From NCBI GenBank assembly GCA_963715955.1, contig CAVQSQ010000024.1, positions 7,139 through 71,138 on the forward strand: a stretch of DNA of 64,000 bases. Direction: 5' to 3'. Below are positions 6,565 through 62,925 of this stretch, piece by piece (the first letter of the stretch is position 1; each line of letters begins with the position of its first letter). Below the pieces are notes generated by a model, which was not told the origin of the DNA, did not search any database, and was given only the letters and a program-made list of their open reading frames with translations. Position numbers and translations under genes: made by a program. The DNA comes from Candidatus Sulfomarinibacteraceae bacterium (lineage in GTDB: Bacteria > Acidobacteriota > Thermoanaerobaculia > Thermoanaerobaculales > Sulfomarinibacteraceae).

Positions 6565-6627
6565 GAGTGTTGAGTTTTGAGTTATGAGTTTTGAGTTAGG
6601 AATTAGGAATTTGGAATTAGGAATGGC
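6565..6627. repeat. Heptanucleotide tandem array, 9 units (GAGTKTT/GAGTTAK/GAATTAG/GAATTTG)
   Basis: Starts on the first base after the pccB TAG stop. Strict 7-bp register was read directly. Confidence 0.85.
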
Positions 6628-6644
6628 ATCCACTCACTCAGTTC

Positions 6645-6679
<35 letters not shown>

Positions 6680-14929: not shown

Positions 14930-17377
14930 ATGACCGCCATGTCGCGACGTAATCTCGTTGTTGTTGCAGCCCTGGTGGGGTTGATTCTGGGTCCTTTGTG
15001 GGCCACCGTTCTCTGGGTGCCTGACGACGGGACGGTGTGGATCTGGTCTCCCGATACCGGGGAACTCCGGGTCCCGGATCGCGGTCTCTCCCTCGTGCCA
15101 AGATGGTCTGGGCGACGGATGGCGGGATCCGAGCTCGTGGCCGAGATCCCGGCCGCCACCTCGGACGGGGCCAGGGTCGGGACGGCGATTATCTTGCGTC
15201 CGCCGGTGGGTGTGTGGCGGCTGGCCGCGGCACCTTCCCCAGAGGAGGGTTTTCGCCGCGGGATCGCCGACGTCGTGCGCGCTGATATTGGCCGCCTTCC
15301 TCTCGACTGTCTCACCCAGGGGGATTCGCAGGCTGGCTGTCCCGACGATACGGACCTTGCATTGCGGCGATCTGTTGCCCTGGCGCTCGGTGTGCCCGAG
15401 GGCGCGGTGGAGGCGGCAATAGAGCCGCAGGATGATGCGGTACGGTCGCGGTTATTGGCCGAGATTGCCGAACGGCTCGACCTGCCGCAGAGAAGAGTGT
15501 TGATTCTGGGTCTCGACGGGCTCGACTGGGACCTGGTTCTGCCGTGGGTGGAGGCGGGCCGTATGCCGAATCTCAAACGGTTGATGGATGCCGGAACCTG
15601 GGGCGTGATGGAAACCGTCGTACCGATTCTGTCGCCGCTCATCTGGACCACCATCGCCACCGGGGCGTCCGCTGATATCCACGGCGTGCTCGATTTTGTT
15701 GAAACCGATCCGGAAACCGGCGGTCTGGTGCCGGTGTCCGGCCGCAGTCGCAAGATACCCGCGGTCTGGAACGTGGCATCCGCGCTCGGCCTCGAGGTGG
15801 GCGTTGTCGGCTGGTGGGCGACCTGGCCGGCAGAGCGGGTCAACGGCACGTTCGTCTCCGACCGCCTCTACTACACCCTGCAGCAGGGCGTCCCCGAGGA
15901 GACCTTCCACCAGGACCCGCCGGATCTCATCTTCCCGCCCGAAAGGACTGCCGAGTTCTCCTCGTTGCGCGATCGGGCGGTCGGCGAGACGGACTGGCGG
16001 GCGATTCGTCACTTCATGAACGTCTCCGAGACGGCCTTCGACCGGGCGGTGGCGGCGAATCGCGGCATGGAAGACCCCATCGACGGAATGCGCCGCATCG
16101 TCAGCGCCACCCGAACCTACATGGGGTCGGGCATGGTGCTGGCCGAGGACCGGCCCGATCTGTTGATGGTGTATCTCGAGGGGACCGATACCATCGGCCA
16201 CCTCCTCGCGCCCTACATGCCGCCGCCGACTCTGGATGTCGATCCCGCCGAGGCCTCGCTGTACGCGGCCGCCGTGCCCACCTATTTCGAAGTCACAGAC
16301 CGTTGGATCGGAAGATATCTGGAGAAGTGCCCGTTGGAGGAATACGCGGTGATCGTGGTCTCGGACCACGGTTTCAAGTGGTCGAAAGATCGCCCCCGCG
16401 GAGTTTCGGGGACCTTTGGAGCGACGGCGCCCTTGTGGCATGCCGACGATGCGATCTTCGTCGTGGCCGGGCCCGATGTGGAGGGCCGCGGTCGCGTCGA
16501 GGGCCGGGCCTCCGTCTACGACGTGGCGCCGACCACGGCGGCGCTGCTCGGCATCCCGGGTGATCCGGGTTGGCACGGTTCGGTGCTGCCCGGCGCGCCG
16601 CCGGCCACGGTAGAACCGGTCCAGTGGATGACGCTGGCGCCGCCTGCAACCTACAGCCAGGGCGGCGGCGGCGTGACGGCGGTGGATCCCGAGTTCATCG
16701 CCAAGTTGAAGGCCCTTGGCTACATCGGAGAAGACGGCACCAGCGCGGGCGGCGTAACGCCGGCGTTGCCTGAGCCGACGGAGACCGTTCCGACCTCGAG
16801 TCAGGACAACATGACCAAGGGTCAACTCAACAACCTCGCCGTGATCAAGATCAATGAGAAGAAGTACGACGAGGGCGAGCGCCTGCTGCGGCAGGCGATC
16901 GCGGAAAACCCGAACTATCCCTCGCCGCACTACAATTTGCGCCGCCTCTACATGGAGACCGAGCGGTATGAACGGGCTGATGAGGAGCTCTGGAAAGCCA
17001 TCGACAAGGGATTCAGGGACCCGGAGAGAACGCTCGACCGGGTGGCGGCCGATTACGAGACCATGCGGATGCCGGAGCGCGCCGACGGGTTGCTCACGCG
17101 TGCCATCGCGCGCTTCCCCGAACACGAGCCGTTCTACGTCCATCTGATGGTCATTCGGGTGCGAGAGGGGCGTTTCGAGGAGGCCCTGCCGGTTGGGGCA
17201 ATCGCCACAGAGAAATTCCCCGGCAGCGGACCGGTGCACGCCTTTTACGGTTTGGCTGCGGCCAGCGCCGGTCAGGCGGACCTGGCGCGCCGCGAGATCG
17301 AAAAGTCGCTGGCCATCAATCCCAATCAACCGATGCTGCGCGAAGCACTCGGTCAGCTGCCGCCGGCTGGAAGATAG
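14930..17377 (+). CDS. Membrane-anchored alkaline-phosphatase-superfamily (type I phosphodiesterase/nucleotide pyrophosphatase-like) protein with C-terminal TPR repeats
   Basis: N-terminal TM helix. VLILGLDGLDWDL..MPNLKRL..SPLIWTTIATG core and VVSDHGF segment. C-terminal TPR helices. Confidence 0.7.
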   Translation: MTAMSRRNLVVVAALVGLILGPLWATVLWVPDDGTVWIWSPDTGELRVPDRGLSLVPRWSGRRMAGSELVAEIPAATSDGARVGTAIILRPPVGVWRLAAAPSPEEGFRRGIADVVRADIGRLPLDCLTQGDSQAGCPDDTDLALRRSVALALGVPEGAVEAAIEPQDDAVRSRLLAEIAERLDLPQRRVLILGLDGLDWDLVLPWVEAGRMPNLKRLMDAGTWGVMETVVPILSPLIWTTIATGASADIHGVLDFVETDPETGGLVPVSGRSRKIPAVWNVASALGLEVGVVGWWATWPAERVNGTFVSDRLYYTLQQGVPEETFHQDPPDLIFPPERTAEFSSLRDRAVGETDWRAIRHFMNVSETAFDRAVAANRGMEDPIDGMRRIVSATRTYMGSGMVLAEDRPDLLMVYLEGTDTIGHLLAPYMPPPTLDVDPAEASLYAAAVPTYFEVTDRWIGRYLEKCPLEEYAVIVVSDHGFKWSKDRPRGVSGTFGATAPLWHADDAIFVVAGPDVEGRGRVEGRASVYDVAPTTAALLGIPGDPGWHGSVLPGAPPATVEPVQWMTLAPPATYSQGGGGVTAVDPEFIAKLKALGYIGEDGTSAGGVTPALPEPTETVPTSSQDNMTKGQLNNLAVIKINEKKYDEGERLLRQAIAENPNYPSPHYNLRRLYMETERYERADEELWKAIDKGFRDPERTLDRVAADYETMRMPERADGLLTRAIARFPEHEPFYVHLMVIRVREGRFEEALPVGAIATEKFPGSGPVHAFYGLAAASAGQADLARREIEKSLAINPNQPMLREALGQLPPAGR

Positions 17378-17623
17378 CTGTCAGCCGTTTGCTATTGGCC
17401 ATGAGCTCGGCATCAAAGACCCGCGGCGATCACAGCGGGCGGTATGCATGCCGCCCCTGCCGGAGAAGCGGCTCGGAGTAGAAGGGGTTGGGAAATTCGG
17501 CCCAACTCTTCTCAAAGACGTGGGCGGGTCCTTCAGGATCCGCGCTCGGACGCCGAATTCAGCTGTCGGAGAATTTCTCGCCCGCCTGGTCCTGAATTCT
17601 CCAGGAGCCTGCGCCAACTGCTC

Positions 17624-19393
17624 CTACTCGGGATTCACGGCCACAGCGATGTTCTGATAGGAGTCCTGCCGGGTCAGGGGGTCGAGGACGGCGACCGCGA
17701 TCTTGTAGCGGCCCGCCTCCATCAGCAGGGTGGTGTCGATGCCCCACCGCTGTCTCTGCGCGTCATCGTAGTTCGCGGCGGGAACCCTGATCTCGTGTTC
17801 CTGACGGACGAGATCCGACTGTTTGCCTTTGCTGTCGCGGGCGGCCACGAAGAGCACGATCCGCCCGACGTAGTCTTCGCCTTCAGGGAGCAGAGCGATC
17901 TTGCGGATAGGAAACGAAATGTGGGCCGGCAACAACCACCGCTTTTCGCTGGCAGGTGATGCCGTGCCGGGCTCGACGTCGAGCTGCATCGGGTTGTCTT
18001 CGACCTCGAAGACCAGGCTGGAGACCACGGTGTCCTGGACCTTGGTTTCGAGTGACTTCTCCACCAGCCGCGAGCGGTAGCGCAGTTCGTAGTCCGCGAA
18101 CGCCGGGTCTTCGCGGAGTTTGACTTTGACCTTGTGGACCTTGTCCCTGCCGCTGGCCTGCAGCGGGTAACCGAGGGAATAATAGGTGTACATGTCCTGA
18201 GAGATCAGACTCAGCCCGGGCGCGACGTCGTTGGTGTTGATGATGGCGATACCGCCGGTCTCGTCGGCAAGGAAACGCAGGCTGTCGGTGAGGTTGTGGC
18301 GCCCCACCGAGGCCGAAAGCGGGTCCTGGGCGCTCGCGAACTCGGCGCTGCCCATGCCACCCATGGTCAGACCCGCGGCATCGATCGAGTAAAAGGCCAC
18401 ATCCTGGGCGTTCGCGGTTGCGGCCAGATTGCTGAACGCCCTCGTCTGGTCGAACTCGTACATCCGGGTCAGGATGGTCGAGCTCTGGGTGACCCGGTTG
18501 AGTTCGTAGAAGAGCTCCATCCCGGGAACCATCGGCAGCCCGTTGGAAACGTAGATGATGCCCTTTTTCCCGGGCAGCCCCGACAGGCTGGTGATGATCT
18601 GGCGGATGGAGTCCATGGTGAACTTGAGGTCGTTGACGCCTTCCCTGGCGTAGTTGTCGATCAGTTGATAGGCCTCGTTCCACTGACCCCCGAGGTCAGA
18701 ACCACTGTATGAACCCCCGGAACTGGTCCGACTCTCGTTTTCGATCGATTTGATGCGGTCGATGATGTCCTTGCGGGCGTTGTCTTGTTCGGTGCGCCCG
18801 CCGGTGTAGCGGCGCACGGCGCGCAGGGCGTCCATCACCTTGTTCGGATCCGACGTGAACGGTTGCAGCACCTCGAACGAGCGCTGGTAGGCCACGACCA
18901 TCATCTGCGCCGGGGGGTGAAGACTGTTCCGCACGAACTCTCGGGTCTGGGAGAGAGTCCGGTTGCGGTCGAGCGGATCGAGGTTCTGGTTGTCGATGTA
19001 GAGAACCATGTGGACAGGGATCGGACCGGCCACGTCGTCGGGGGCCGGCGTCGGAGTGGCCAGGGTGAAGTTGTCGTCCGCCCGGGGTGCCATCTGGGTG
19101 CGGATGATCTCATCCGTGTAGAGCTTGAAGTTGGTGATCTGTTTGGCCTCGCCGTCCTGGAAGACCTCGAAGTCGTCCGCTGTGAGATCGGTGACGGCGA
19201 TCCCCTTCTTGTCGGTCACATAGACCACCAGATTGGCGATCGTGAGCTCGAACTCGTCGACAAAGGTGAGACCGCCGATGGGGCGGATCTCGTTTGCTGT
19301 CTGCGGTTCTTCGTCGTCGGCGCCGCCGGCAAAGGGCAGAGCCAGCAACACGATCAACAGCAATGCCAAGGAACGCAACTCTTTCACGCGCAC
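17624..19393 (-). CDS. Secreted VWA-domain protein (acidobacterial VWFA-related type)
   Basis: Signal peptide. FELTIANLVVYVTDKKGIAVTDLTADDFEVFQDGEAKQITNF motif. The true start may be the second GTG (19387), 5 nt after GAGGAGG. Confidence 0.6.
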   Translation of the reverse strand: MRVKELRSLALLLIVLLALPFAGGADDEEPQTANEIRPIGGLTFVDEFELTIANLVVYVTDKKGIAVTDLTADDFEVFQDGEAKQITNFKLYTDEIIRTQMAPRADDNFTLATPTPAPDDVAGPIPVHMVLYIDNQNLDPLDRNRTLSQTREFVRNSLHPPAQMMVVAYQRSFEVLQPFTSDPNKVMDALRAVRRYTGGRTEQDNARKDIIDRIKSIENESRTSSGGSYSGSDLGGQWNEAYQLIDNYAREGVNDLKFTMDSIRQIITSLSGLPGKKGIIYVSNGLPMVPGMELFYELNRVTQSSTILTRMYEFDQTRAFSNLAATANAQDVAFYSIDAAGLTMGGMGSAEFASAQDPLSASVGRHNLTDSLRFLADETGGIAIINTNDVAPGLSLISQDMYTYYSLGYPLQASGRDKVHKVKVKLREDPAFADYELRYRSRLVEKSLETKVQDTVVSSLVFEVEDNPMQLDVEPGTASPASEKRWLLPAHISFPIRKIALLPEGEDYVGRIVLFVAARDSKGKQSDLVRQEHEIRVPAANYDDAQRQRWGIDTTLLMEAGRYKIAVAVLDPLTRQDSYQNIAVAVNPE

Positions 19394-19430
19394 CTCCTCG
19401 GTGAGTCTAGCAAAACCCAGCCTCCGGCCG

Positions 19431-19472
19431 GATACAGGTCTCAGGATTCAGGATGCAGGATCCAGGATCCAA
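19431..19472. repeat. Heptanucleotide tandem array (GATNCAG x6), inverted relative to 19525..19608
   Basis: Read directly: gatacag gtctcag gattcag gatgcag gatccag gatccaa. Confidence 0.8.
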
Positions 19473-19491
19473 GTTTCACCGCAATAGGCCC

Positions 19492-19519
19492 TTGACAAAC
19501 AGGGAGTGGGTTTTACGAT
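19492..19519 (+). promoter_or_regulatory. Sigma70-like promoter candidate for the ECF sigma gene
   Basis: TTGACA (19492-19497), 16-nt spacer, TACGAT (19514-19519). The predicted start falls at the first unit of the CTGCATC array. Confidence 0.4.
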
Positions 19520-19524
19520 CTCAG

Positions 19525-19608
19525 CTGCATCCTGCATCCTGCATCCTGCATCCTGCATCCTGCATCCTGCATCCTGCATCCTGCACCCTGCATCCTGCAT
19601 CCTTCATC
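19525..19608. repeat. Heptanucleotide tandem array (CTGCATC x12; 10 perfect, 2 single-base variants)
   Basis: Counted unit by unit. Lies 66 nt upstream of the ECF sigma ATG. The reverse complement reads (GATGCAG)12. Confidence 0.9.
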
Positions 19609-19674
19609 CAGGCAACCCCCACGCCCCGAATCCGTATCCCATTGGATGGCGCCCTTGTTGCCGCGGTATGATCG

Positions 19675-20259
19675 ATGGCCGTGACCGGAAAGATCGAGAA
19701 GCTGTCGGACGAGAACCTGGTCGAGCTCGCTCTCGATGGCGATGAGGATGCCTACGGCGTGCTCGTACGCCGCTACCAGCGCCGCCTGACGGCGTTTCTC
19801 GGGCAACTGGTCGGCGACATCGAACTCGCGCGCGAGCTTTCGCAGGAGGCCTTCATCCGCGCGTGGTCGGCCCTGGCGAGATTCGATCCCCGCTACCGCT
19901 TTTCGACCTGGCTGTTCAGAATCGCTCACAACCTGGGCATCGACCACCTCCGGCGGCGGCGTCTGAAAACCGTGGGTCTGTACCGGACGGACTCGGACGG
20001 TGATGAGGTCGAGGTGGTGGTTGCCGACCTCGACAAGGACCCCCTCGGTCACCTCGAAAACAGGGTTCTCGCCGAGGAGCTGCATCAGGTCATCGACGAT
20101 TTGCGGCCCGAGTATCGCGAACTGGTTCTGCTGCGTCATTTCGGCGGGCTCAGCTATCAGGAGATCGCCGAGTTCAAAGACATGCCCCTGGGCACGGTGA
20201 AGAACAAACTTTTTCGAGCCCACTCCGTATTACGTACAGCGTTGGCCGCTTTCCTGTAG
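19675..20259 (+). CDS. ECF-family RNA polymerase sigma factor
   Basis: Region 2 (YQRRLTAFL..ELSQEAFIRAW..FSTWLFRIAHNLGIDHLRRR) and region 4 (LRHFGGLSYQEIAEFKDMPLGTVKNKLFRA). Confidence 0.85.
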   Translation: MAVTGKIEKLSDENLVELALDGDEDAYGVLVRRYQRRLTAFLGQLVGDIELARELSQEAFIRAWSALARFDPRYRFSTWLFRIAHNLGIDHLRRRRLKTVGLYRTDSDGDEVEVVVADLDKDPLGHLENRVLAEELHQVIDDLRPEYRELVLLRHFGGLSYQEIAEFKDMPLGTVKNKLFRAHSVLRTALAAFL

Positions 20260-24632: not shown

Positions 24633-25367
24633 ATGGGAGAGTTCGACGGCCAGATTGCGGTGATCACCGGCGGGGCGCGCGGCATCGGTGCCGAGATCGC
24701 CCGTCGTTTAGCGCGCGGCGGCGCGACGGCGGTGTGCGTGGATGTTCTCGACACTCAGGAGATCGTGGCCGAGATCACGGGCGCCGGTGGGGCGGCCGAG
24801 GGCCATCACCTCGATGTCACCGACGCCGAACAGTCGGCCCAGTGCCTCAAGGCGATTCACGACACGCACGGACGGATCGACATTCTCGTCAACAACGCAG
24901 GGATCACCCGCGACCAGCTGCTGGTGCGGATGAAACCGGAGGACTGGGACCTGGTCCTCGGCATCAACCTCGACGGTGTGTTCAAGGTGACACAGCCGGT
25001 GGCCAAGATGATGATGAAGGCGAGGAACGGCCGCATCGTCAACGTGGCCTCGGTGGTGGGTCTCATGGGGAATGCCGGGCAGGCCAACTACGCCGCTTCC
25101 AAGGCGGGCCTGATCGGGTTCACCAAGAGTCTCGCCCGCGAGCTCGGACCGCGCAACATCACGGTCAATGCGGTCGCGCCGGGCTACATCACAACACCGA
25201 TGACCGACAAACTCACGGACGACCAACGTGACGCGTTGCTCAAGAACGTCGCCATCCCGCGCCTCGGCACTCCGGAGGATGTGGCGGAGGCGGTGGCGTT
25301 CCTGGCCGGTCCCGGGGCCTCCTATATCACCGGTGTGGTGCTCAACATCTCGGGTGGGCTCTATATT

Positions 25368-25370
<3 letters not shown>
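24633..25370 (+). CDS. fabG: 3-oxoacyl-ACP reductase
   Basis: VITGGARGIG, NNAGITRD, YAASKAG SDR catalytic motif, NISGGLYI end. Confidence 0.9.
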
Positions 25371-25416
<46 letters not shown>

Positions 25417-25494
25417 TGCCCACCGACTCCCGGATCAGGTCGAGGGTGGGGAGTCTGAAGCGACGGACGGCCTGACGAGGTTTTTTCGGGTGGT

Positions 25495-27897
25495 ATGATC
25501 GGCGCTGTGACGACGTCGCAGAACTCCAACAGCTCCTCAACGGTTGGACGCGTGGTCGGTCGGGCCCTGATTTCCGGTCTGCTCGCGGCGGCTGTTGCTT
25601 GCGCTCCCGGGGTGAAGACCGCTGACAACCCCGGTGATGTGCTGATTGTGACGCTCGACACCGCGCGCGCCGACCGGTTTTCTCATGCCGGACCGTCCCC
25701 GGTGACAACCGCAGCCACCGACCGGGTTGCGGCCGAAGGCGCCGCCTTCCTTGCAGCGGTCGCGCCGTCGCCGATCACTCTGGTCTCTCACGCGTCGCTG
25801 TTCACCGGCCAGAATCCTCCCAACCACGGCGTCCGCAACAACGGCGACTTCGCTCTCGGCCCGGAAGCTCTGACCCTCGCCGAAACCCTCGCGGACCGCG
25901 GCTGGGCCACCGCCGCCTTTGTGGGGGCGTCGGTGCTCGACAGCCGCTACGGTCTCGATCAGGGGTTCGCCGTCTACGACGACGCGATTTCCGGCACCGA
26001 CGCTTCGGGCATGTTCACCTACCCGCGGCGGCGTGGCGATGAAGTGGTTGCGGCAGCGCTGCGATGGCTGAACGCGGCGCCTCCAGGCCCCACGTTCGTG
26101 TGGGTCCACCTCTTTGACCCGCACGCTCCCTACGACCCCCCCGAGCCCGAACGCAGCATGTATCCGGAGAGCCTCTACGACGGCGCCGTCGCCTACGCCG
26201 ACAAGATGGTCGGCAGATTGCTCGACGGCTACCGCAGCCTCGGGCGCTACGAACGCACACTCGTGGTGATCACCTCCGACCACGGCGAGAGCCTCGGCGA
26301 GCACGGCGAGAAGACTCACGGTGTCTTCGTCTACGACGCCACGGTCAGGGTTCCTCTCGTCATACGCGGTCCCGGCGTGCTCGCCGGTGCCAGGGTGACC
26401 AACCCTGCCGGACTGATTGACGTGATGCCGACTGTTCTCGATCTTGCCGGGATCGCTGTTCCTCCAGGGGTGGAGGGTCGGGATCTCGGATCCGAGCTGC
26501 GGGGCAGCGGTTCAGTCGACGCCGAACGGGTCATCTATGTCGAAAGCCTGCTGCCGCTCATGTACTACGGCTGGAGCCCGCTGCACGGTCTCAGGACGGC
26601 GAAGTGGAAGTACATCCAAGGAGCCGGGACGGAGCTCTTCGACCTCGAGGTGGATCCCTCGGAAGACCGAAACCTGGCAGGCGCCAGCCCTGAGGTCACC
26701 GAACGGCTGGCATCCCGACTCGCCGCGATTCTCGACGACGAACAGTCCACGACAGCCGACCGGCTGGATGTCGACGACGAGGAGCGCAGCCGTCTCGCTG
26801 CCCTGGGGTATGTCTCGTTCGTGGGTGATGACGCGGCGGGGGACCCCCGACGCGACCGGCCGGATCCTCGCGAGCGCATCCACGTCATGGAACGGATGTA
26901 CGACGCCATGACGCGTTTCGCCGAGGGCGACATCGGCGGGGCGATGGCGGATCTCGAAGCGATGGTAGAGACGGAACCGGACAACTTCAGCGCCTGGGCG
27001 AGTCTCGCCGAGCTGCGATTCAGGGTCGGCGATTTCACACCGGCGGCTGTCGCCTGGGGCCATGCTGCTCGTCTCGCCCCACACAACTCGCGATACGCGG
27101 AGCTCGAGGCGAATGCACTCGAGAGGAGCGGACGATTCGAGGAGTCGCTCGCTGCATGCGACCGGGCTCTGGCCGTGGATCCGGACCGCGCCGGCGCACG
27201 TGACCTCCGTTGGCGGCTCCTGGCTCGCCTGGACCGTCGCGAAGAACTGGGGGCGGAGCTCGAAAGGGCACTGGCTGCCGACCCGAAAAACGGGATGGCG
27301 CGCCTCCTGTCGATTCAGTCCGCTCACGGGCAGGCGCCGTCACCGGAACTCGTAGAGGCGTTGGAGTCGGCCCTGCAGGACCTGCCCGGCGACCTCGCGC
27401 TGACCGCCGGGTTGGCGGCCGCATCCCTCGGGACCGGTGATGCTGAACGGGCCGCACGTCTCTACCGACAGGTGTTGGCCGAGCGACCGGGCGATCTCAG
27501 CGCGTCGTTGGTGCTTGGCGAACGGGCGCTCGAGGCCGGGGAGATCCAGGAGGCGCGGAAGATCTGTGAAGCCGGAGTGCGCCGGAACCCGGAACGGGCG
27601 CCGATGCAGGTCTTGGCGGCGCGGGCGCGGATGGCCGGCGGGGACGCCGGGGGCGCCCGCGAAGCGCTGGTTCGCGCCTACCAGCTGCAGCCGGGGTGGG
27701 CGGAGACCTGGCTCGCCGCGGGCGAGCTCGGAATTCTCGAAGGACTCCCGGAGCAGGCCGCTGCCAACCTCGACCGCGCCGCGGCAGCGGCCGGAGACGA
27801 TCCCGATCTCTGGCTGCGCCTGGCCGACGCCAACCGGCGTCTGGGCCGCGAGGACAAGGCCCAGGCCGCCGCGGAGCGCGCGCGGCAGGGTGGCTGA
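25495..27897 (+). CDS. Sulfatase-like (AlkP-superfamily) hydrolase/transferase with long C-terminal TPR domain, probable lipoprotein
   Basis: LAAAVAC lipobox-like N-terminus. LIVTLDTARADR, SPITLVSHASLFTG, VITSDHGESLGEHG motifs. About 400 aa of TPR helices. Confidence 0.7.
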   Translation: MIGAVTTSQNSNSSSTVGRVVGRALISGLLAAAVACAPGVKTADNPGDVLIVTLDTARADRFSHAGPSPVTTAATDRVAAEGAAFLAAVAPSPITLVSHASLFTGQNPPNHGVRNNGDFALGPEALTLAETLADRGWATAAFVGASVLDSRYGLDQGFAVYDDAISGTDASGMFTYPRRRGDEVVAAALRWLNAAPPGPTFVWVHLFDPHAPYDPPEPERSMYPESLYDGAVAYADKMVGRLLDGYRSLGRYERTLVVITSDHGESLGEHGEKTHGVFVYDATVRVPLVIRGPGVLAGARVTNPAGLIDVMPTVLDLAGIAVPPGVEGRDLGSELRGSGSVDAERVIYVESLLPLMYYGWSPLHGLRTAKWKYIQGAGTELFDLEVDPSEDRNLAGASPEVTERLASRLAAILDDEQSTTADRLDVDDEERSRLAALGYVSFVGDDAAGDPRRDRPDPRERIHVMERMYDAMTRFAEGDIGGAMADLEAMVETEPDNFSAWASLAELRFRVGDFTPAAVAWGHAARLAPHNSRYAELEANALERSGRFEESLAACDRALAVDPDRAGARDLRWRLLARLDRREELGAELERALAADPKNGMARLLSIQSAHGQAPSPELVEALESALQDLPGDLALTAGLAAASLGTGDAERAARLYRQVLAERPGDLSASLVLGERALEAGEIQEARKICEAGVRRNPERAPMQVLAARARMAGGDAGGAREALVRAYQLQPGWAETWLAAGELGILEGLPEQAAANLDRAAAAAGDDPDLWLRLADANRRLGREDKAQAAAERARQGG

Positions 27898-29121: not shown

Positions 29122-30246
29122 TCAGGCGACGATCGTCTCGGCCTCGATCGGACGGTAGAGGGTGTCCCGAAGCACCGGCACGCGGCCCGCTTCGGTGATC
29201 AGGGCCTCGAGTCTCTGCCGCGCCATTCCGGTGCCGGCGGTGCCCCCCGCGGCGTGCGTGATGCGTTCGTCGACGATGGTCCCGTCAAGGTCGTTGGCGC
29301 CGAATTCGAGCGCCACCTGGGCGACCTTCTCACCGAGCATGATCCAGTAGGCCTTGAGGTGCGGCACGTTGTCGAGGACCAACCGCGAGACCGCGATGGT
29401 CTGCAGGTCGAGACGACCGCCGGTGGGCGGCAGGTGGTCGAGTCTGGTGTTCTCGGGGTGGAATGCGAGCGGGATCAGACACTGGAAGCCGCCGGTCTCG
29501 TCCTGTAGCTGTCGCAACTGAAGGAGGTGATCGACGCGTTCGGCGGCGGTCTCGACGTGGCCGTAGAGCATGGTGCAGTTCGAGCGGATGCCCGCCCGGT
29601 GGACCGTGCGGGCGATGTCGAGCCAGCGTCCGCCGTCGGTCTTGTGGTCGCAGATCTGTTCGCGGACCCGCGGGGCGAAGATCTCTGCGCCGCCGCCGGG
29701 GCAGGAGTCGAGCCCGGCATCGCGAAGCCTGTTGATCGTGTCCTCGAGGCTGAGACGGGAGGCCTTGGCCAGGAAATCGAACTCGACCATCGTGAGGGCC
29801 TTCAGGTGGACCCAGGGAAAACGCTGTTTCAGGGCCCGAAAGAGGTCCTCGTAGTATTCGACCAGAAGCTTCGGGTGCAGCCCGCCGACGATGTGCAGCT
29901 CCGAAACCGACTCGTCGACATCGCGCGCGGCGATCTCGACGGCCTGCTCGACCGAGTAGGTCCAACCATCCTCCCGCTCCCGCCACGGGACGTAGAAGGC
30001 GCACAACTTGCAGGACGCCACGCACACGTTGGTGGGGTTGAGATGGCGGTTGATGTTGTAGTAGGTGCGGTCGCCGTGCAGGCGCTCTCTGACCAGGTTG
30101 GCCAGACGCCCGACTCCCAGCAGGTCGTCGGTGGTCGCCAGTATCAACGCGTCGTCGCCGTCCAACCGTTCCCCTGCGAGCACTTTTTCCGCGACCGGCG
30201 CGAGGGCGGGATCGACGAGGCGGAAGTCTTCGACGGCACGTATCAC
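29122..30246 (-). CDS. Futalosine-pathway radical SAM enzyme (MqnE/MqnC family; aminofutalosine synthase-like)
   Basis: NPTNVCVASCKLCAF CxxxCxxC cluster, GGLHP, and a family-typical C-terminal half (FGANDLDGT). MqnE and MqnC cannot be separated by eye. Confidence 0.75.
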   Translation of the reverse strand: MIRAVEDFRLVDPALAPVAEKVLAGERLDGDDALILATTDDLLGVGRLANLVRERLHGDRTYYNINRHLNPTNVCVASCKLCAFYVPWREREDGWTYSVEQAVEIAARDVDESVSELHIVGGLHPKLLVEYYEDLFRALKQRFPWVHLKALTMVEFDFLAKASRLSLEDTINRLRDAGLDSCPGGGAEIFAPRVREQICDHKTDGGRWLDIARTVHRAGIRSNCTMLYGHVETAAERVDHLLQLRQLQDETGGFQCLIPLAFHPENTRLDHLPPTGGRLDLQTIAVSRLVLDNVPHLKAYWIMLGEKVAQVALEFGANDLDGTIVDERITHAAGGTAGTGMARQRLEALITEAGRVPVLRDTLYRPIEAETIVA

Positions 30247-30312
30247 AGAGTCATTATCCTTGCGACCGGGTCTCTTTTCAACTCGACCCCGTATTTTTCT
30301 CGAGGCTTCGAT

Positions 30313-35890: not shown

Positions 35891-35948
35891 AATATGGTGC
35901 CAACGATAGTTTTTGTCAAGCTTTTTTCTTATTTTTTCTAGATTTTTT
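35891..35948 (-). promoter_or_regulatory. Sigma70-like promoter with three helically phased A6 tracts (UP-element-like)
   Basis: On the minus strand: TTGACA (35919-35914), 17-nt spacer, CATATT (35896-35891). A6 tracts at 35922-27, 35932-37 and 35943-48 are spaced 10 and 11 bp apart. Confidence 0.5.
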
Positions 35949-36039: not shown

Positions 36040-36120
36040 AGCCTCTTGCAAAAACCGATTCTGAACACCGTAGGGGCGGGGTTTATCCCCGCCCGCTCAT
36101 GTCGAATTTTGCAAGAGGCT
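36040..36120. repeat. MITE/REP-like element: perfect 14-bp terminal inverted repeats around a GC hairpin
   Basis: AGCCTCTTGCAAAA (36040-53) pairs with TTTTGCAAGAGGCT (36107-20). The central GTAGGGGCGGGGTTTATCCCCGCCC hairpin spans 36070-36094. Confidence 0.65.
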
Positions 36121-36185
36121 CAGTTGTGTGCGGAGGGGGTTCCTCCGCGAGAAAGGGAGTCGGTTGCCGGTCGGTGTGCGTGCAG

Positions 36186-45822: not shown

Positions 45823-45898
<76 letters not shown>

Positions 45899-46014: not shown

Positions 46015-46113
46015 GGAAGCGCATGGGGCCTGGTGGCTTCCGCGGACTTCAAATCCGTTGGGCCGGCCTCAGTAGGGTCGGTCGGAGGGTTCGATTCCCT
46101 TGCGCTTCCGCCA
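46015..46113 (+). tRNA. selC: tRNA-Sec (selenocysteine, anticodon TCA)
   Basis: 8-bp acceptor GGAAGCGC/GCGCTTCC + G + CCA. 6-bp D stem with 4-nt loop. Anticodon loop CTTCAAA. Long variable arm. 5-bp T stem GAGGG/CCCTT (8+5 geometry). Close parallel to the E. coli selC layout. Confidence 0.9.
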
Positions 46114-55092: not shown

Positions 55093-56649
<1,557 letters not shown>

Positions 56650-57654: not shown

Positions 57655-57923
57655 TGTGGAGCGAAGTTTATCCCATTCCTCCCCTGCCACGTCCGCCGTC
57701 TGTGGTCGGCCTCCCATCGTTCCTCCGGGGTCGGTATCCCGATTCTCTCGGCGTTGGTGCCCGTGAGTGCCCCCCTCGAGGATGTTTGCGACCGCAGTGT
57801 CTACGTGTGTCGAGGTCTCGTGATCGCAAAATCCTCGAGGACGGCACGTCCGGTGGATGCGAGCGGTCTCCCTTTCCCCCTTGCTCCCTTGCTCCTCTGC
57901 CCCTCTGCCCTATACTGACTCCC

Positions 57924-58445
57924 GTGACCGATCCACTCCCGTCGTCGCCCCTTGCCCGTTGGGACGGGCTCCACCTGGTGGTGGACCTGGAGCGTGCCGA
58001 GCACCACGTCGGTCGGGCGCTGGCCGGCAACGACCGGATGCGGGACCTCCGGCTGCGTGGTGCAGGCGACGCGCTCGAAGCGGAGGTCACGGTGCTCTGG
58101 AAGGGCGTGGCCGCCCGGGTCGGGCTCGAACTCGCGGAAATCAGGCTGCACCACCGCCACATCGGTTTCAGAATGCGGCGGCTGCGCGCGCTGGGTGGGG
58201 TTCCGGTGCCGAGGGCCGCGGTCGAGGTGGCCTTGCAGTCGCTCGACAGCCCGATCCTGAGGGTTTTTCGGGGCGACGGGATCGTCGTGATCGACCTCCG
58301 CCGCTGGCTGCCGACCCAGCTCGAGGTGAACGTCGTGACGGTCCAGGCCACTCTCCGCTCGCTGCACGTGTGGTTCGGCCCGGGCCGGCTCGACGACCTG
58401 CCGGGACGAGGCCCGGCTCGACTGCCCTCCGGGCGCGGTGGGTGA
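57924..58445 (+). CDS. Hypothetical protein (174 aa), possibly leaderless
   Basis: GTG start lies 8 nt after a TATACT box. No motif recognised. Coding status is uncertain in this GC-rich context. Confidence 0.3.
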   Translation: MTDPLPSSPLARWDGLHLVVDLERAEHHVGRALAGNDRMRDLRLRGAGDALEAEVTVLWKGVAARVGLELAEIRLHHRHIGFRMRRLRALGGVPVPRAAVEVALQSLDSPILRVFRGDGIVVIDLRRWLPTQLEVNVVTVQATLRSLHVWFGPGRLDDLPGRGPARLPSGRGG

Positions 58446-58471
58446 CCCGCCGAAATCCGGCCTGAAACGCC

Positions 58472-58500
58472 TTGACAGCCGGAGTTTGCTTGGGTAGAGT
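58472..58500 (+). promoter_or_regulatory. Sigma70-like promoter of the ribosomal-protein operon
   Basis: TTGACA (58472-77), 17-nt spacer, TAGAGT (58495-500). The 54-nt leader carries a CCCTGTG-CCC-ACAGGG hairpin. Confidence 0.55.
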
Positions 58501-58554
58501 CTTGTTCCCCTGTGCCCACAGGGATGGCGAACTGGTACGCGAGGATTGGAAATC

Positions 58555-62592: not shown

Positions 62593-62624
62593 CACCCGGG
62601 GCTGTGGGCTGTGGGCTATGAGTT

Positions 62625-62823
62625 GAGCTTCTTGCAATATTCAATGCGGGCGGGGATAAACCCCGCCCCTACGGTTTTCAGACACGCGGACGGGGTTGAG
62701 ACAAACCTAGCCCTTGCAGGCACATGCCGTCCTCAAAGTCGTAGGGGAGGGGTTTATCCCCTCCCATTCGGGTCTTTCTGTGCCGCGATTCTTCTGACCT
62801 GCGGATGTTTTTGCAAGAGGTTT
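62625..62823. repeat. MITE/REP-like composite element: same TIR family as 36040..36120, with two inverted copies of the GC hairpin
   Basis: GAGCTTCTTGCAA (62625-37) pairs with TTGCAAGAGGTTT (62811-23). GCGGGCGGGGATAAACCCCGCCCCTAC (62646-72) is the reverse complement of the 36070 core. The variant GTAGGGGAGGGGTTTATCCCCTCCC spans 62741-65. Confidence 0.65.
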
Positions 62824-62890
62824 AGCTGTGAGCTGTGACCCAACCTCCGCGTCTGATCAGGATGGCTTTCCCCAAGGCTCGGTATCAGAC

Positions 62891-62925
62891 AATTCAAAAT
62901 TCAAAATTCAAAATTCAAAATTGTG
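62891..62925. repeat. Heptanucleotide tandem array (AATTCAA x4 + AATTGTG)
   Basis: Read directly. The last unit contains the in-frame TTG (62921) proposed as the ispD start. Confidence 0.85.

Follow-up and report, generated by a model that had tools for sequence, protein, structure and literature searches.

In the 64,000-nucleotide stretch of a Candidatus Sulfomarinibacteraceae contig analyzed here (hereafter, the window), a VWA-domain gene and a sigma factor gene diverge from an intergenic region that carries two heptanucleotide arrays, one on either side of a promoter-like core. The minus-strand gene (17624–19393) belongs to the acidobacterial VWFA family (TIGR03436 acidobact_VWFA, E = 1e-53, 183 bits against a cut-off of 81), and the plus-strand gene (19675–20259) encodes an extracytoplasmic function (ECF) sigma factor that matches PF04542, PF08281, PF07638 and, above its cut-off, TIGR02937, with SigW/RpoE-like families as its best NCBIfam matches. 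Between the two genes, and read on the plus strand, lie a left array, (GGATNCA)x6, at 19430–19471, a core of 53 bp at 19472–19524, and a right array, (CTGCATC)x12.1, at 19525–19609. The core holds a sigma-70-like promoter match, TTGACA-N16-TACGAT (19492–19519, plus strand), which faces the sigma gene and scores 10/12 in a promoter scan.

A preliminary description of this DNA had reported an inverted pair of heptad arrays around a promoter-like core, and Tandem Repeats Finder, a repeat finder, and the promoter scan bear out that arrangement. Both arrays have a period of 7, with 6.0 copies and 78% matches on the left (consensus GGATCCA) and 12.1 copies and 96% matches on the right. The left array is degenerate, its units reading GGATACA, GGTCTCA, GGATTCA, GGATGCA, GGATCCA, and GGATCCA. 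In their best registers the arrays form inverted arms of 39–52 nt that are 79–82% complementary and 47–59 nt apart. Judged from the units themselves, this "inverted" relation stems in part from the repeat, because two palindromes, GGATCC and TGCA, occur within the unit. GGATCCA, the unit of the left array, has 1 mismatch to the GCATCCA unit of relatives in direct orientation, and its reverse complement has 1 mismatch to TGCATCC. Several open reading frames (ORFs) cross the arrays (19453–19671 and others); these were dismissed as genes, as their sequence is missing from relatives.

The same site was compared in about 20 orthologous loci, the useful close relatives having been gathered by protein search and contig look-ups. 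Sigma orthologs place the window in the Acidobacteriota, among metagenome-assembled genomes named Candidatus Sulfomarinibacteraceae or Thermoanaerobaculales. The exact sigma and VWA proteins of the window have no other record, the window allele is known from one sequence, and a metagenome scan with the sigma protein returned nothing above 84% identity. Five relatives with 92–95% sigma identity (L001, L002, L168, L169, and L203) have an empty site, i.e. an intergenic region of ~85 bp with neither array nor core, and in the more distant ortholog L083 this region measures only ~55 bp. Because these 5 close relatives keep the divergent gene pair without array or core, the array pair is, on this comparison, not a conserved control element of the sigma and VWA genes. 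In L161–L167 (95–96% sigma identity), a hairpin element of ~190 bp sits at exactly the site of the window insert and is followed by 1–4 GCATCCN units. Specifically, there are ~1 unit in L165, 1–2 in L166/L167, 2 in L161/L162, 3 in L164, and 4 in L163, against 12 in the window and 0 at empty sites; the preliminary description had held that a change in copy number would alter the gene spacing by 7-bp steps, and between relatives copy number at this site does change in such steps. The end of the right array with its flank is 87% identical to L163 over 91 bp, and its last 3–4 units are orthologous to the 1–4 GCATCCN units of the relatives. Two further loci, L202 and L204, carry (ACATCCA)3 or (GCATCCA)3–4 in another context.

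Simple and inverted repeats are error-prone in short-read assemblies, and the contigs of L202 and L204 end 50–75 nt upstream of their arrays. One could therefore suspect repeat collapse, expansion, or a chimeric join in the metagenome assembly. This is very improbable, given that orthologous arrays of the same unit stand at the same place in at least 7 independent assemblies, that a typical read exceeds the 84-bp tract in length, and that both flanks are collinear with those of relatives.

The ends of the insert suggest an older event at this site. In the window and in the hairpin-element alleles, the insert opens with the same ~10 nt (GCCTCC...), and the window retains the left end of the ancestral insertion, GCCTCCGGCC at 19420–19429 (compare GCCTCCTCCGACC in L161–L164). 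Just outside, comparison with empty sites reveals the left copy, GCAAAACCCA (19410–19419), and the right copy, GCAACCCCCA (19612–19621, plus strand, which doubles as a −35-like box), of a possible target-site duplication of ~10 bp. The copies agree at 8 of 10 positions, and the corresponding empty sites read TAGCAAACCCACG (L001, L002, L168, L169) or TAGCAAACCCCCAC (L203). This suggests a duplication of an ancestral GCAAACCCA made by insertion of the hairpin element; it is common to the hairpin-element allele and would predate the array-core-array unit. On these comparisons the window allele is a derived state, in which the right array grew from a few units to 12 and the interior of the element was replaced. 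Simple repeats also occur upstream of the sigma gene in distant orthologs, where hexamers, (GGGAAC)n and (GGAATC)n, lie at L005:218–321 and a 9-mer array at L084:2476–2502; the region appears to draw such repeats across the family.

Both genes have promoter-like motifs of their own. The VWA gene probably starts at GTG 19387 rather than at GTG 19393 of the longest ORF, with a Shine-Dalgarno sequence, GGAGG, at 19393–19397. On the minus strand, GGAGG and a GTG are preceded by a widely conserved extended −10-like motif, TGCTAGACT (TGnTAnnnT, 19404–19412), which lies to the left of the whole insertion; it reads TGnTA(G/A/C)ACT in L001, L002, L003, L023, L081, L083, and L161–L169, and the TG is missing in L004 and L084. 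On the plus strand, the right array abuts the −35-like GCAAC box of a predicted ECF/SigW-type promoter, GCAAC-N16-CGTATC (19612–19638, with CGTATC at 19633–19638), which resembles the B. subtilis SigW consensus, TGAAAC-N16-CGTA. In the alignment, AAC and AAT.CGTATC are invariant in 10 relatives, and the 16-nt spacer is fixed in length and variable in sequence. A second, predicted leaderless promoter of sigma-70 type (19667–19683, plus strand) consists of a −10-like TATGAT at 19667–19672 placed 8 nt from a conserved GTG at 19681, the probable true start of the sigma gene, and a TAnnnT hexamer stands 6–9 nt 5′ of a GTG or ATG start in all sigma orthologs read. Leaderless-type starts seem common in this DNA in general, with a −10-like hexamer (often GGTATGATC) 6–9 nt before a GTG or ATG and no Shine-Dalgarno sequence (e.g. 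window 19667–19683, 25494–25510, and 30246–30281, and orthologs in L001–L009 and L081–L086).

These sigma and VWA motifs, predicted to act as promoters, are outside the arrays and are kept in relatives that have none. As such, the arrays would belong neither to the conserved regulatory architecture nor to the native 5′ untranslated region (UTR) of either gene, and neither gene should need them.

Heptads recur well beyond this site. Across 258 kb (the window and related loci), 29 of 32 arrays with a period of 6–9 and at least 3.5 copies have a period of 7. A scan of the whole 64-kb window for exact tandem runs of at least 3.5 copies, at periods of 4–12, returned 5 uninterrupted arrays, all of period 7, and 50 block shuffles gave no period-7 array. 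Window arrays include AATTCAA (2244 and 62891), GAGTTTT, TTAGGAA, and AATTCGG (6565–6675), and GAATTCG (25382, with its reverse complement at 56126). Among the GAATTNN family, which comprises the variants GAATTCG, GAATTTT, GAATTAG, and GAGTTTT, all 5 arrays checked (2244–2275, 6565–6675, 25382–25414, 56126–56157, and 62891–62922) begin 0–6 nt after the upstream stop codon or overlap it, in the same sense orientation. Our GC3-based gene calls are a rough map only, with several regions mis-called, and stop-codon adjacency was checked separately. The array at 56126–56157 takes up the entire interval from a TGA stop to the following ATG, and where a unit contains TGA or TAG, three repeats place a stop codon in all three frames.

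The array behind the fabG stop codon is an example of unit turnover. Every relative has heptads there that end in GAATTCGGAAT, with differing units and copy numbers, i.e. GAATTCG x4.7 in the window (region 25340–25420), GAATTTT x3 in L161 (15693–15729), AAGTTTT x4 in L163 (15705–15731), GAATTAG x4 in L164 (15696–15741), and GAATTAG x8.4 in L169 (15711–15769). The unit has thus turned over completely among relatives whose sigma proteins are 94–96% identical, which is what slippage on mutated units would produce.

Given these comparisons, we favor the reading that the array pair is a young, lineage-specific, hypermutable pair of heptanucleotide variable-number tandem repeats in an insertion hotspot of a compact divergent promoter region, and we hold this to be probable, if some way from certain. 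We have about the same degree of confidence that the pair is one case of a clade-wide tendency to grow intergenic 7-bp arrays, and not a conserved regulatory device.

The history that we propose would begin with an ancestral intergenic region of ~85 bp, in which GCAAAC-N16-CGTATC and TATGAT-GTG were directed toward the sigma gene and TGCTAGACT toward the VWA gene. A hairpin-forming element of ~190 bp would then have inserted, apparently duplicating ~10 bp (GCAAACCCA), and a GCATCCN unit at its 3′ edge would have expanded to 1–4 copies, presumably by replication slippage. In the window lineage, the interior of the element would have been swapped for 95 bp of unexplained origin (19430–19524), i.e. 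a degenerate array in the opposite orientation and the promoter-bearing core, and the right array would have grown to 12 nearly perfect units. Unit number would drift in 7-bp steps by slippage, and pairing of the arms may promote hairpins, deletion, or inversion. Any present-day effect would be incidental, with the core promoter adding a second sigma-operon transcript whose output may depend on tract length.

Several points weigh against this reading. The left array and the core have no counterpart in any relative, and their origin is unexplained. Hypervariability within populations is extrapolated from differences between relatives, and every promoter assignment is read from the sequence. Units of the NCATCCA type occur in three structural contexts at this one locus, which could reflect selection for a tract upstream of the sigma gene. 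Finally, expansion and purity are combined only in the tract that transcription from the core promoter would traverse, and this would also fit a functional arrangement like that of the H. influenzae hmw genes.

The core promoter is probably functional, because 10/12 matches are rare in the window (only 4 over both strands) and the other three directly precede gene starts. These are at 58472 before rplM, at 30281 before a gene that starts at 30246, and at 35919 before an ATG with a Shine-Dalgarno sequence; the first reads TTGACA-17-TAGAGT and lies just 5′ of rplM. From the core promoter, transcription would plausibly start near 19526, at the first unit of the right array, and make (CUGCAUC)12 a 5′ leader, so the promoter could add a repeat-leadered sigma transcript with a leader of ~155 nt. 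The preliminary description had proposed such a 5′ UTR for the sigma gene and called the tract C-rich, G-poor, and rut-like. The composition is as it said, each unit having 3 C and 1 G, or 43% C and 14% G across the 84 nt. A rut site is a C-rich, G-poor stretch of untranslated RNA, weakly structured and about 70 nt long or longer; the composition and weak structure of the tract would suit one if the tract were transcribed and Rho acted on it. The leader itself is plausible for the window lineage, where the promoter match is rare, but the sigma gene also has conserved promoter-like motifs downstream. The right array lies outside the conserved motifs of both genes, and only RNAs initiated at the core promoter, which is lineage-specific, would have it in their 5′ UTR.

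A comparable leader has been described at the hmw1A/hmw2A phase-variation locus of H. influenzae, where transcription starts at the first unit of (ATCTTTC)n, a G-rich complementary arm lies downstream in the same 5′ UTR, and the hairpin is cut by RNase III (PMC12721329). The hmw hairpin is required for expression and for repeat-number change, and the latter also needs transcription (PMC12721329). If the window pair were a contingency locus of this type, the core promoter would start at the first unit and the length of the (CUGCAUC)n leader would set the output of the sigma operon, be it by RNA structure, by RNase processing, or by loading of Rho onto a tract rich in C and poor in G, with slippage producing heritable, reversible states. 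In favor of this are the rarity of the promoter match, the composition of the tract, the contrast between a pure, expanded arm on the transcribed side (96%, 12 units) and a decayed arm on the untranscribed side (78%, 6 units), and the count of only 1–4 units in relatives that lack the core promoter. Yet the arrangement occurs in one lineage only, and the two conserved sigma promoter-like elements downstream would bypass the leader. In addition, the complementary arm (19430–19471) is upstream of the core promoter (19492–19519) and thus off its transcript, whereas hmw1 has both arms in the 5′ UTR, and the leader by itself shows no unusual degree of structure (z = −1.6). We therefore regard a contingency locus as unlikely, though it deserves to be kept in mind.

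A long hairpin is predicted only with both arms on one strand (RNA z = −3.8 for plus and −5.5 for minus; DNA z = −3.3), and the promoter scan found no predicted promoter that would place both arms on one transcript. The preliminary description had envisaged a minus-strand transcript with (GAUGCAG)12 that would fold in this way and attract a CsrA/RsmA-type protein. Folding in both orientations upholds the hairpin for an RNA that carries both arms, but buries the GGA motifs in its stem. The transcript itself gained no backing, as there is no minus-strand promoter-like site to the right of the array, and the conserved VWA motif lies to the left of both arrays. Known CsrA sites present GGA in loops. 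Searches (tblastn) with E. coli and B. subtilis CsrA gave nothing significant in the sequence covered, namely the 64-kb window and 25 related loci, and apart from a tRNA and a tRNA-Sec no Rfam family, of the CsrB/RsmY/RsmZ type or any other, had a match in the window. For an RNA-protein device, in which twelve CAGGAUG motifs on a minus-strand RNA would bind or titrate such a protein, one can cite the 12 GGA-containing units on that strand and the listing of CsrA as a candidate binder of other heptamer repeats (PMC4679880). Set against these are the lack of a promoter-like site and of a CsrA homologue in the DNA searched, the base-paired motifs, and close relatives in which the tract is missing or has only 1–4 units. 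The binding claim thus found no support, and we consider such a device highly unlikely.

Inverted heptad pairs are found at two other loci, i.e. (TAGCTNT)n/(AGCTAAC)n in L001, L163, L164, L168, and L169, and (CGTGGTC)n/(GACCACG)n in L008. The latter, at L008:3150–3483, consists of (CGTGGTC)4 within a 53-bp higher-order repeat present 3 times, then a strong GC hairpin, and then the inverted (GACCACG)4. The (TAGCTNT)n pair encloses a four-helix-bundle gene (TIGR02436, similar to bAvd and 23S-IVS proteins) between convergent phosphodiesterase and VWA genes. Its left array has 5–10.9 units, the first of which holds the stop codon of the upstream gene, and its right array has ~4.4–5. The cassette lies at L001:2630–3149, L163:7432–7932, L164:7445–7938, L168:151–684, and L169:7608–8147, and the window retains a decayed array only (17375–17402, TAGCTGT CAGCCGT TTGCTAT TGGCCAT), without the four-helix-bundle gene. 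When L001 is compared with L163, the ~500 bp inside the pair prove to be inverted, with 87% identity on opposite strands and collinear flanks, and inverted heptad pairs would on this account be recombinogenic.

Invertons of the fimS type have dedicated recombinases, defined short inverted repeats, and both orientations within populations. At the window locus, inverted arms likewise flank a good promoter between divergent genes, and recombination between them could flip the 53-bp core so that transcription from it enters either the sigma operon or the VWA gene, with a (CUGNAUC)n leader in either orientation. The inversion of ~500 bp across a heptad pair of the same clade lends this some appeal. 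However, one orientation is seen, in the one sequence of the window allele, the arms are only 79–82% complementary, and a spacer of 53 bp, compared with ~430 bp in the demonstrated inversion, is so short as to be sterically unfavorable for synapsis. Moreover, the immediate neighbors, which were the genes scanned (VWA, sigma, two unknown ORFs, and yceD), include no recombinase domain. Overall, we judge an invertible promoter switch to be improbable. We give equally little credence to a broader version, in which the inverted heptad pairs of the clade are self-renewing recombination arms and have here made an invertible promoter with both orientation and repeat-number states; if true, inversion of the four-helix-bundle cassette would be the same process on a larger scale.

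The hairpin element found at this site in relatives also occurs elsewhere in the window. It is a low-copy element of ~125–190 nt with conserved flanks (…TCCCGATTCTCT…TGCCCGTGAGTGCCCCC … GACGGCACGTCCGGTGRAYGCG) and a long, variable stem; just 4 copies already show 9 of its base pairs to be preserved by compensatory change. Copies lie at window 57737–57861, L161:9737–9925, L163:9723–9911, L164:9729–9918, L166:2280–2465, and L165:97–174. In both contexts, the element stands in a divergent intergenic region and is followed by a short-period array, of GCATCCN in relatives and CTCCCTTG in the window (57868–57910). A phage link was rejected, given that the 32 matches of a 16-mer to viral contigs all lacked the 5′ motif of the element and are chance matches. 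Downstream in the window, the ~600 bp between the 8-mer array and rplM (57918–58545) contain no convincing ORF or family match, the ORF at 57923–58445 having no NCBIfam match.

A second element resembles a miniature inverted-repeat transposable element (MITE), with terminal inverted repeats (of the CCTCGTGCAAAA … TTTTGCACGAGG type) and an internal GCGGGCGGGGATAAACCCCGCCCC hairpin. It is present at window 62618–62830, with a fragment at 36053–36122, and at L161:7531–7735 and L162:7534–7738. Both full copies lie inside arrays of (NAGCTGT) type, which in the window are GGGCTGT x2.7 at 62599 and AGCTGTG x2.1 at 62824. Neither the arrays nor the core nor the hairpin element has a counterpart in Rfam, whose only matches in the window are a tRNA and a tRNA-Sec; the selenocysteine tRNA (76 bits) adjoins an ordinary tRNA on the opposite strand (46015–46109 and 45826–45898).

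These elements bear on the possibility that array, core, and array together form a MITE-like mobile cassette, or "mobile promoter", in which the heptad arrays serve as terminal inverted repeats and which took the place of the hairpin element in one piece. The architecture of inverted termini would suit such a cassette, as would the possible 10-bp duplication around the insert, the presence of small mobile-looking elements in such intergenic regions (the hairpin element, and the element at 62618–62830 within heptad arrays), and the inverted heptad arrays that also bound the four-helix-bundle cassette. The core, however, is single-copy, with no second copy in any sequence compared: none was found in the window (3 mismatches), by BLAST of 204 loci (1.49 Mb of related loci), or in viral contigs. 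A likeness of the core to a TTGGACA... sequence of L202/L204 was also rejected, with a local score of 11 against a shuffle mean of 12. Furthermore, the hairpin-element allele has the right array and both insert ends in common with the window, and the possible duplication would therefore belong to the older insertion. A mobile cassette thus seems to us a poor prospect, and we retain the young repeat pair as the preferred reading.

Read in this way, the locus is a clear and datable example of the birth of a heptamer repeat, from an empty site to an element, to a seed of 1–4 units, and to a tract of 12 units and its inverted partner. The locus extends the phenomenon of heptameric simple sequence repeats (SSRs) from Xanthomonas, cyanobacteria, and Beggiatoaceae to the Acidobacteriota, and adds no new regulatory principle. 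Two hints at mechanism emerge, namely that an inverted heptad pair is able to flip the DNA between its arms, and that the only expanded, pure tract would be the transcribed one, which echoes the transcription-driven change in heptamer number at hmw1 (PMC12721329). For annotation, the lesson is that relatives should be checked before such arrays are called gene-specific control elements.

The closest comparisons differ in how much they share with the window pair. As in hmw, a heptamer SSR lies directly 3′ of a promoter, with a predicted start at the first unit, at least 10 variable units, and a complementary sequence. Unlike hmw, the complementary arm is upstream of the promoter and the sigma gene has its own conserved promoter-like motifs downstream, and the window locus resembles hmw1 only in the predicted start position, without a hairpin on the same transcript. 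At V. cholerae ctxAB, AT-rich TTTTGAT repeats bind ToxT, ToxR, and H-NS, with measured promoter effects (bioRxiv 10.1101/2021.05.14.444153). There, as here, a heptad tract stands directly upstream of the −35 region, with copy number that differs between strains (ctxAB) or relatives (window), but no binding protein is predicted for the window tract, which is missing in close relatives. With invertons, the locus shares inverted repeats around a promoter between genes, and the clade shares an inversion across a similar heptad pair; unlike theirs, the arms of the window consist of imperfect tandem repeats, set around a short spacer of 53 bp.

The TAACTGA direct repeats known from Beggiatoaceae, cyanobacteria, and Bacteroidetes are intergenic, and RNA-binding proteins including CsrA have been put forward only as candidate binders (PMC4679880). 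Like the arrays of the clade, they are abundant intergenic heptamer tandem arrays at ORF boundaries. They have one dominant unit, lie mostly 5′ of starts, and are almost never inverted, whereas the clade has many units, mostly placed after stop codons, with recurring inverted pairs.

Intergenic heptameric SSRs, head-to-tail arrays of at least 2–4 units, are described from Xanthomonas, with GGGAATC or (GGGANTN)n units, and from Nostoc, with GGGGA(C/T)T (Rehm et al. 2015; PMC4692102). Xanthomonas has ~186 arrays per genome, of which 89–93% are intergenic and which include 70–75 inverted pairs; they lie nearer the preceding ORF, differ in length between sister species, and are rarest between divergent genes, at 7–8% (PMC4692102). 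The same paper relays the hypothesis that polymerase slippage favors 7-nt units, and refers to Mrazek (2007) on heptamers being over-represented in prokaryotic SSRs. The arrays of the present clade resemble those of Xanthomonas and Nostoc in their tandem 7-nt units, strongly intergenic placement, large number, position-specific degeneracy, and close inverted pairs, and those of Xanthomonas also in differing in length and sequence at orthologous sites between close relatives and in lying near the end of the upstream ORF. They differ in their phylum, Acidobacteriota (Thermoanaerobaculales/Candidatus Sulfomarinibacteraceae), and in their diverse units (TGCATCC, GAATTCG, GAATTTT, TAGCTGT, and others), which have no G-tracts, so a G-quadruplex, as read for Xanthomonas, is not expected and was dismissed. 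Also unlike Xanthomonas, the window pair lies between divergent genes and around a promoter-like core, and the history of its site can be read stepwise from relatives. The function of the Xanthomonas and Nostoc arrays is not established (PMC4692102), and the class is mechanistically unexplained. In structure, the window pair fits this class in every respect, being made of tandem 7-nt units, intergenic between the VWA and ECF sigma genes, one of many such arrays, variable, and arranged as an inverted pair.

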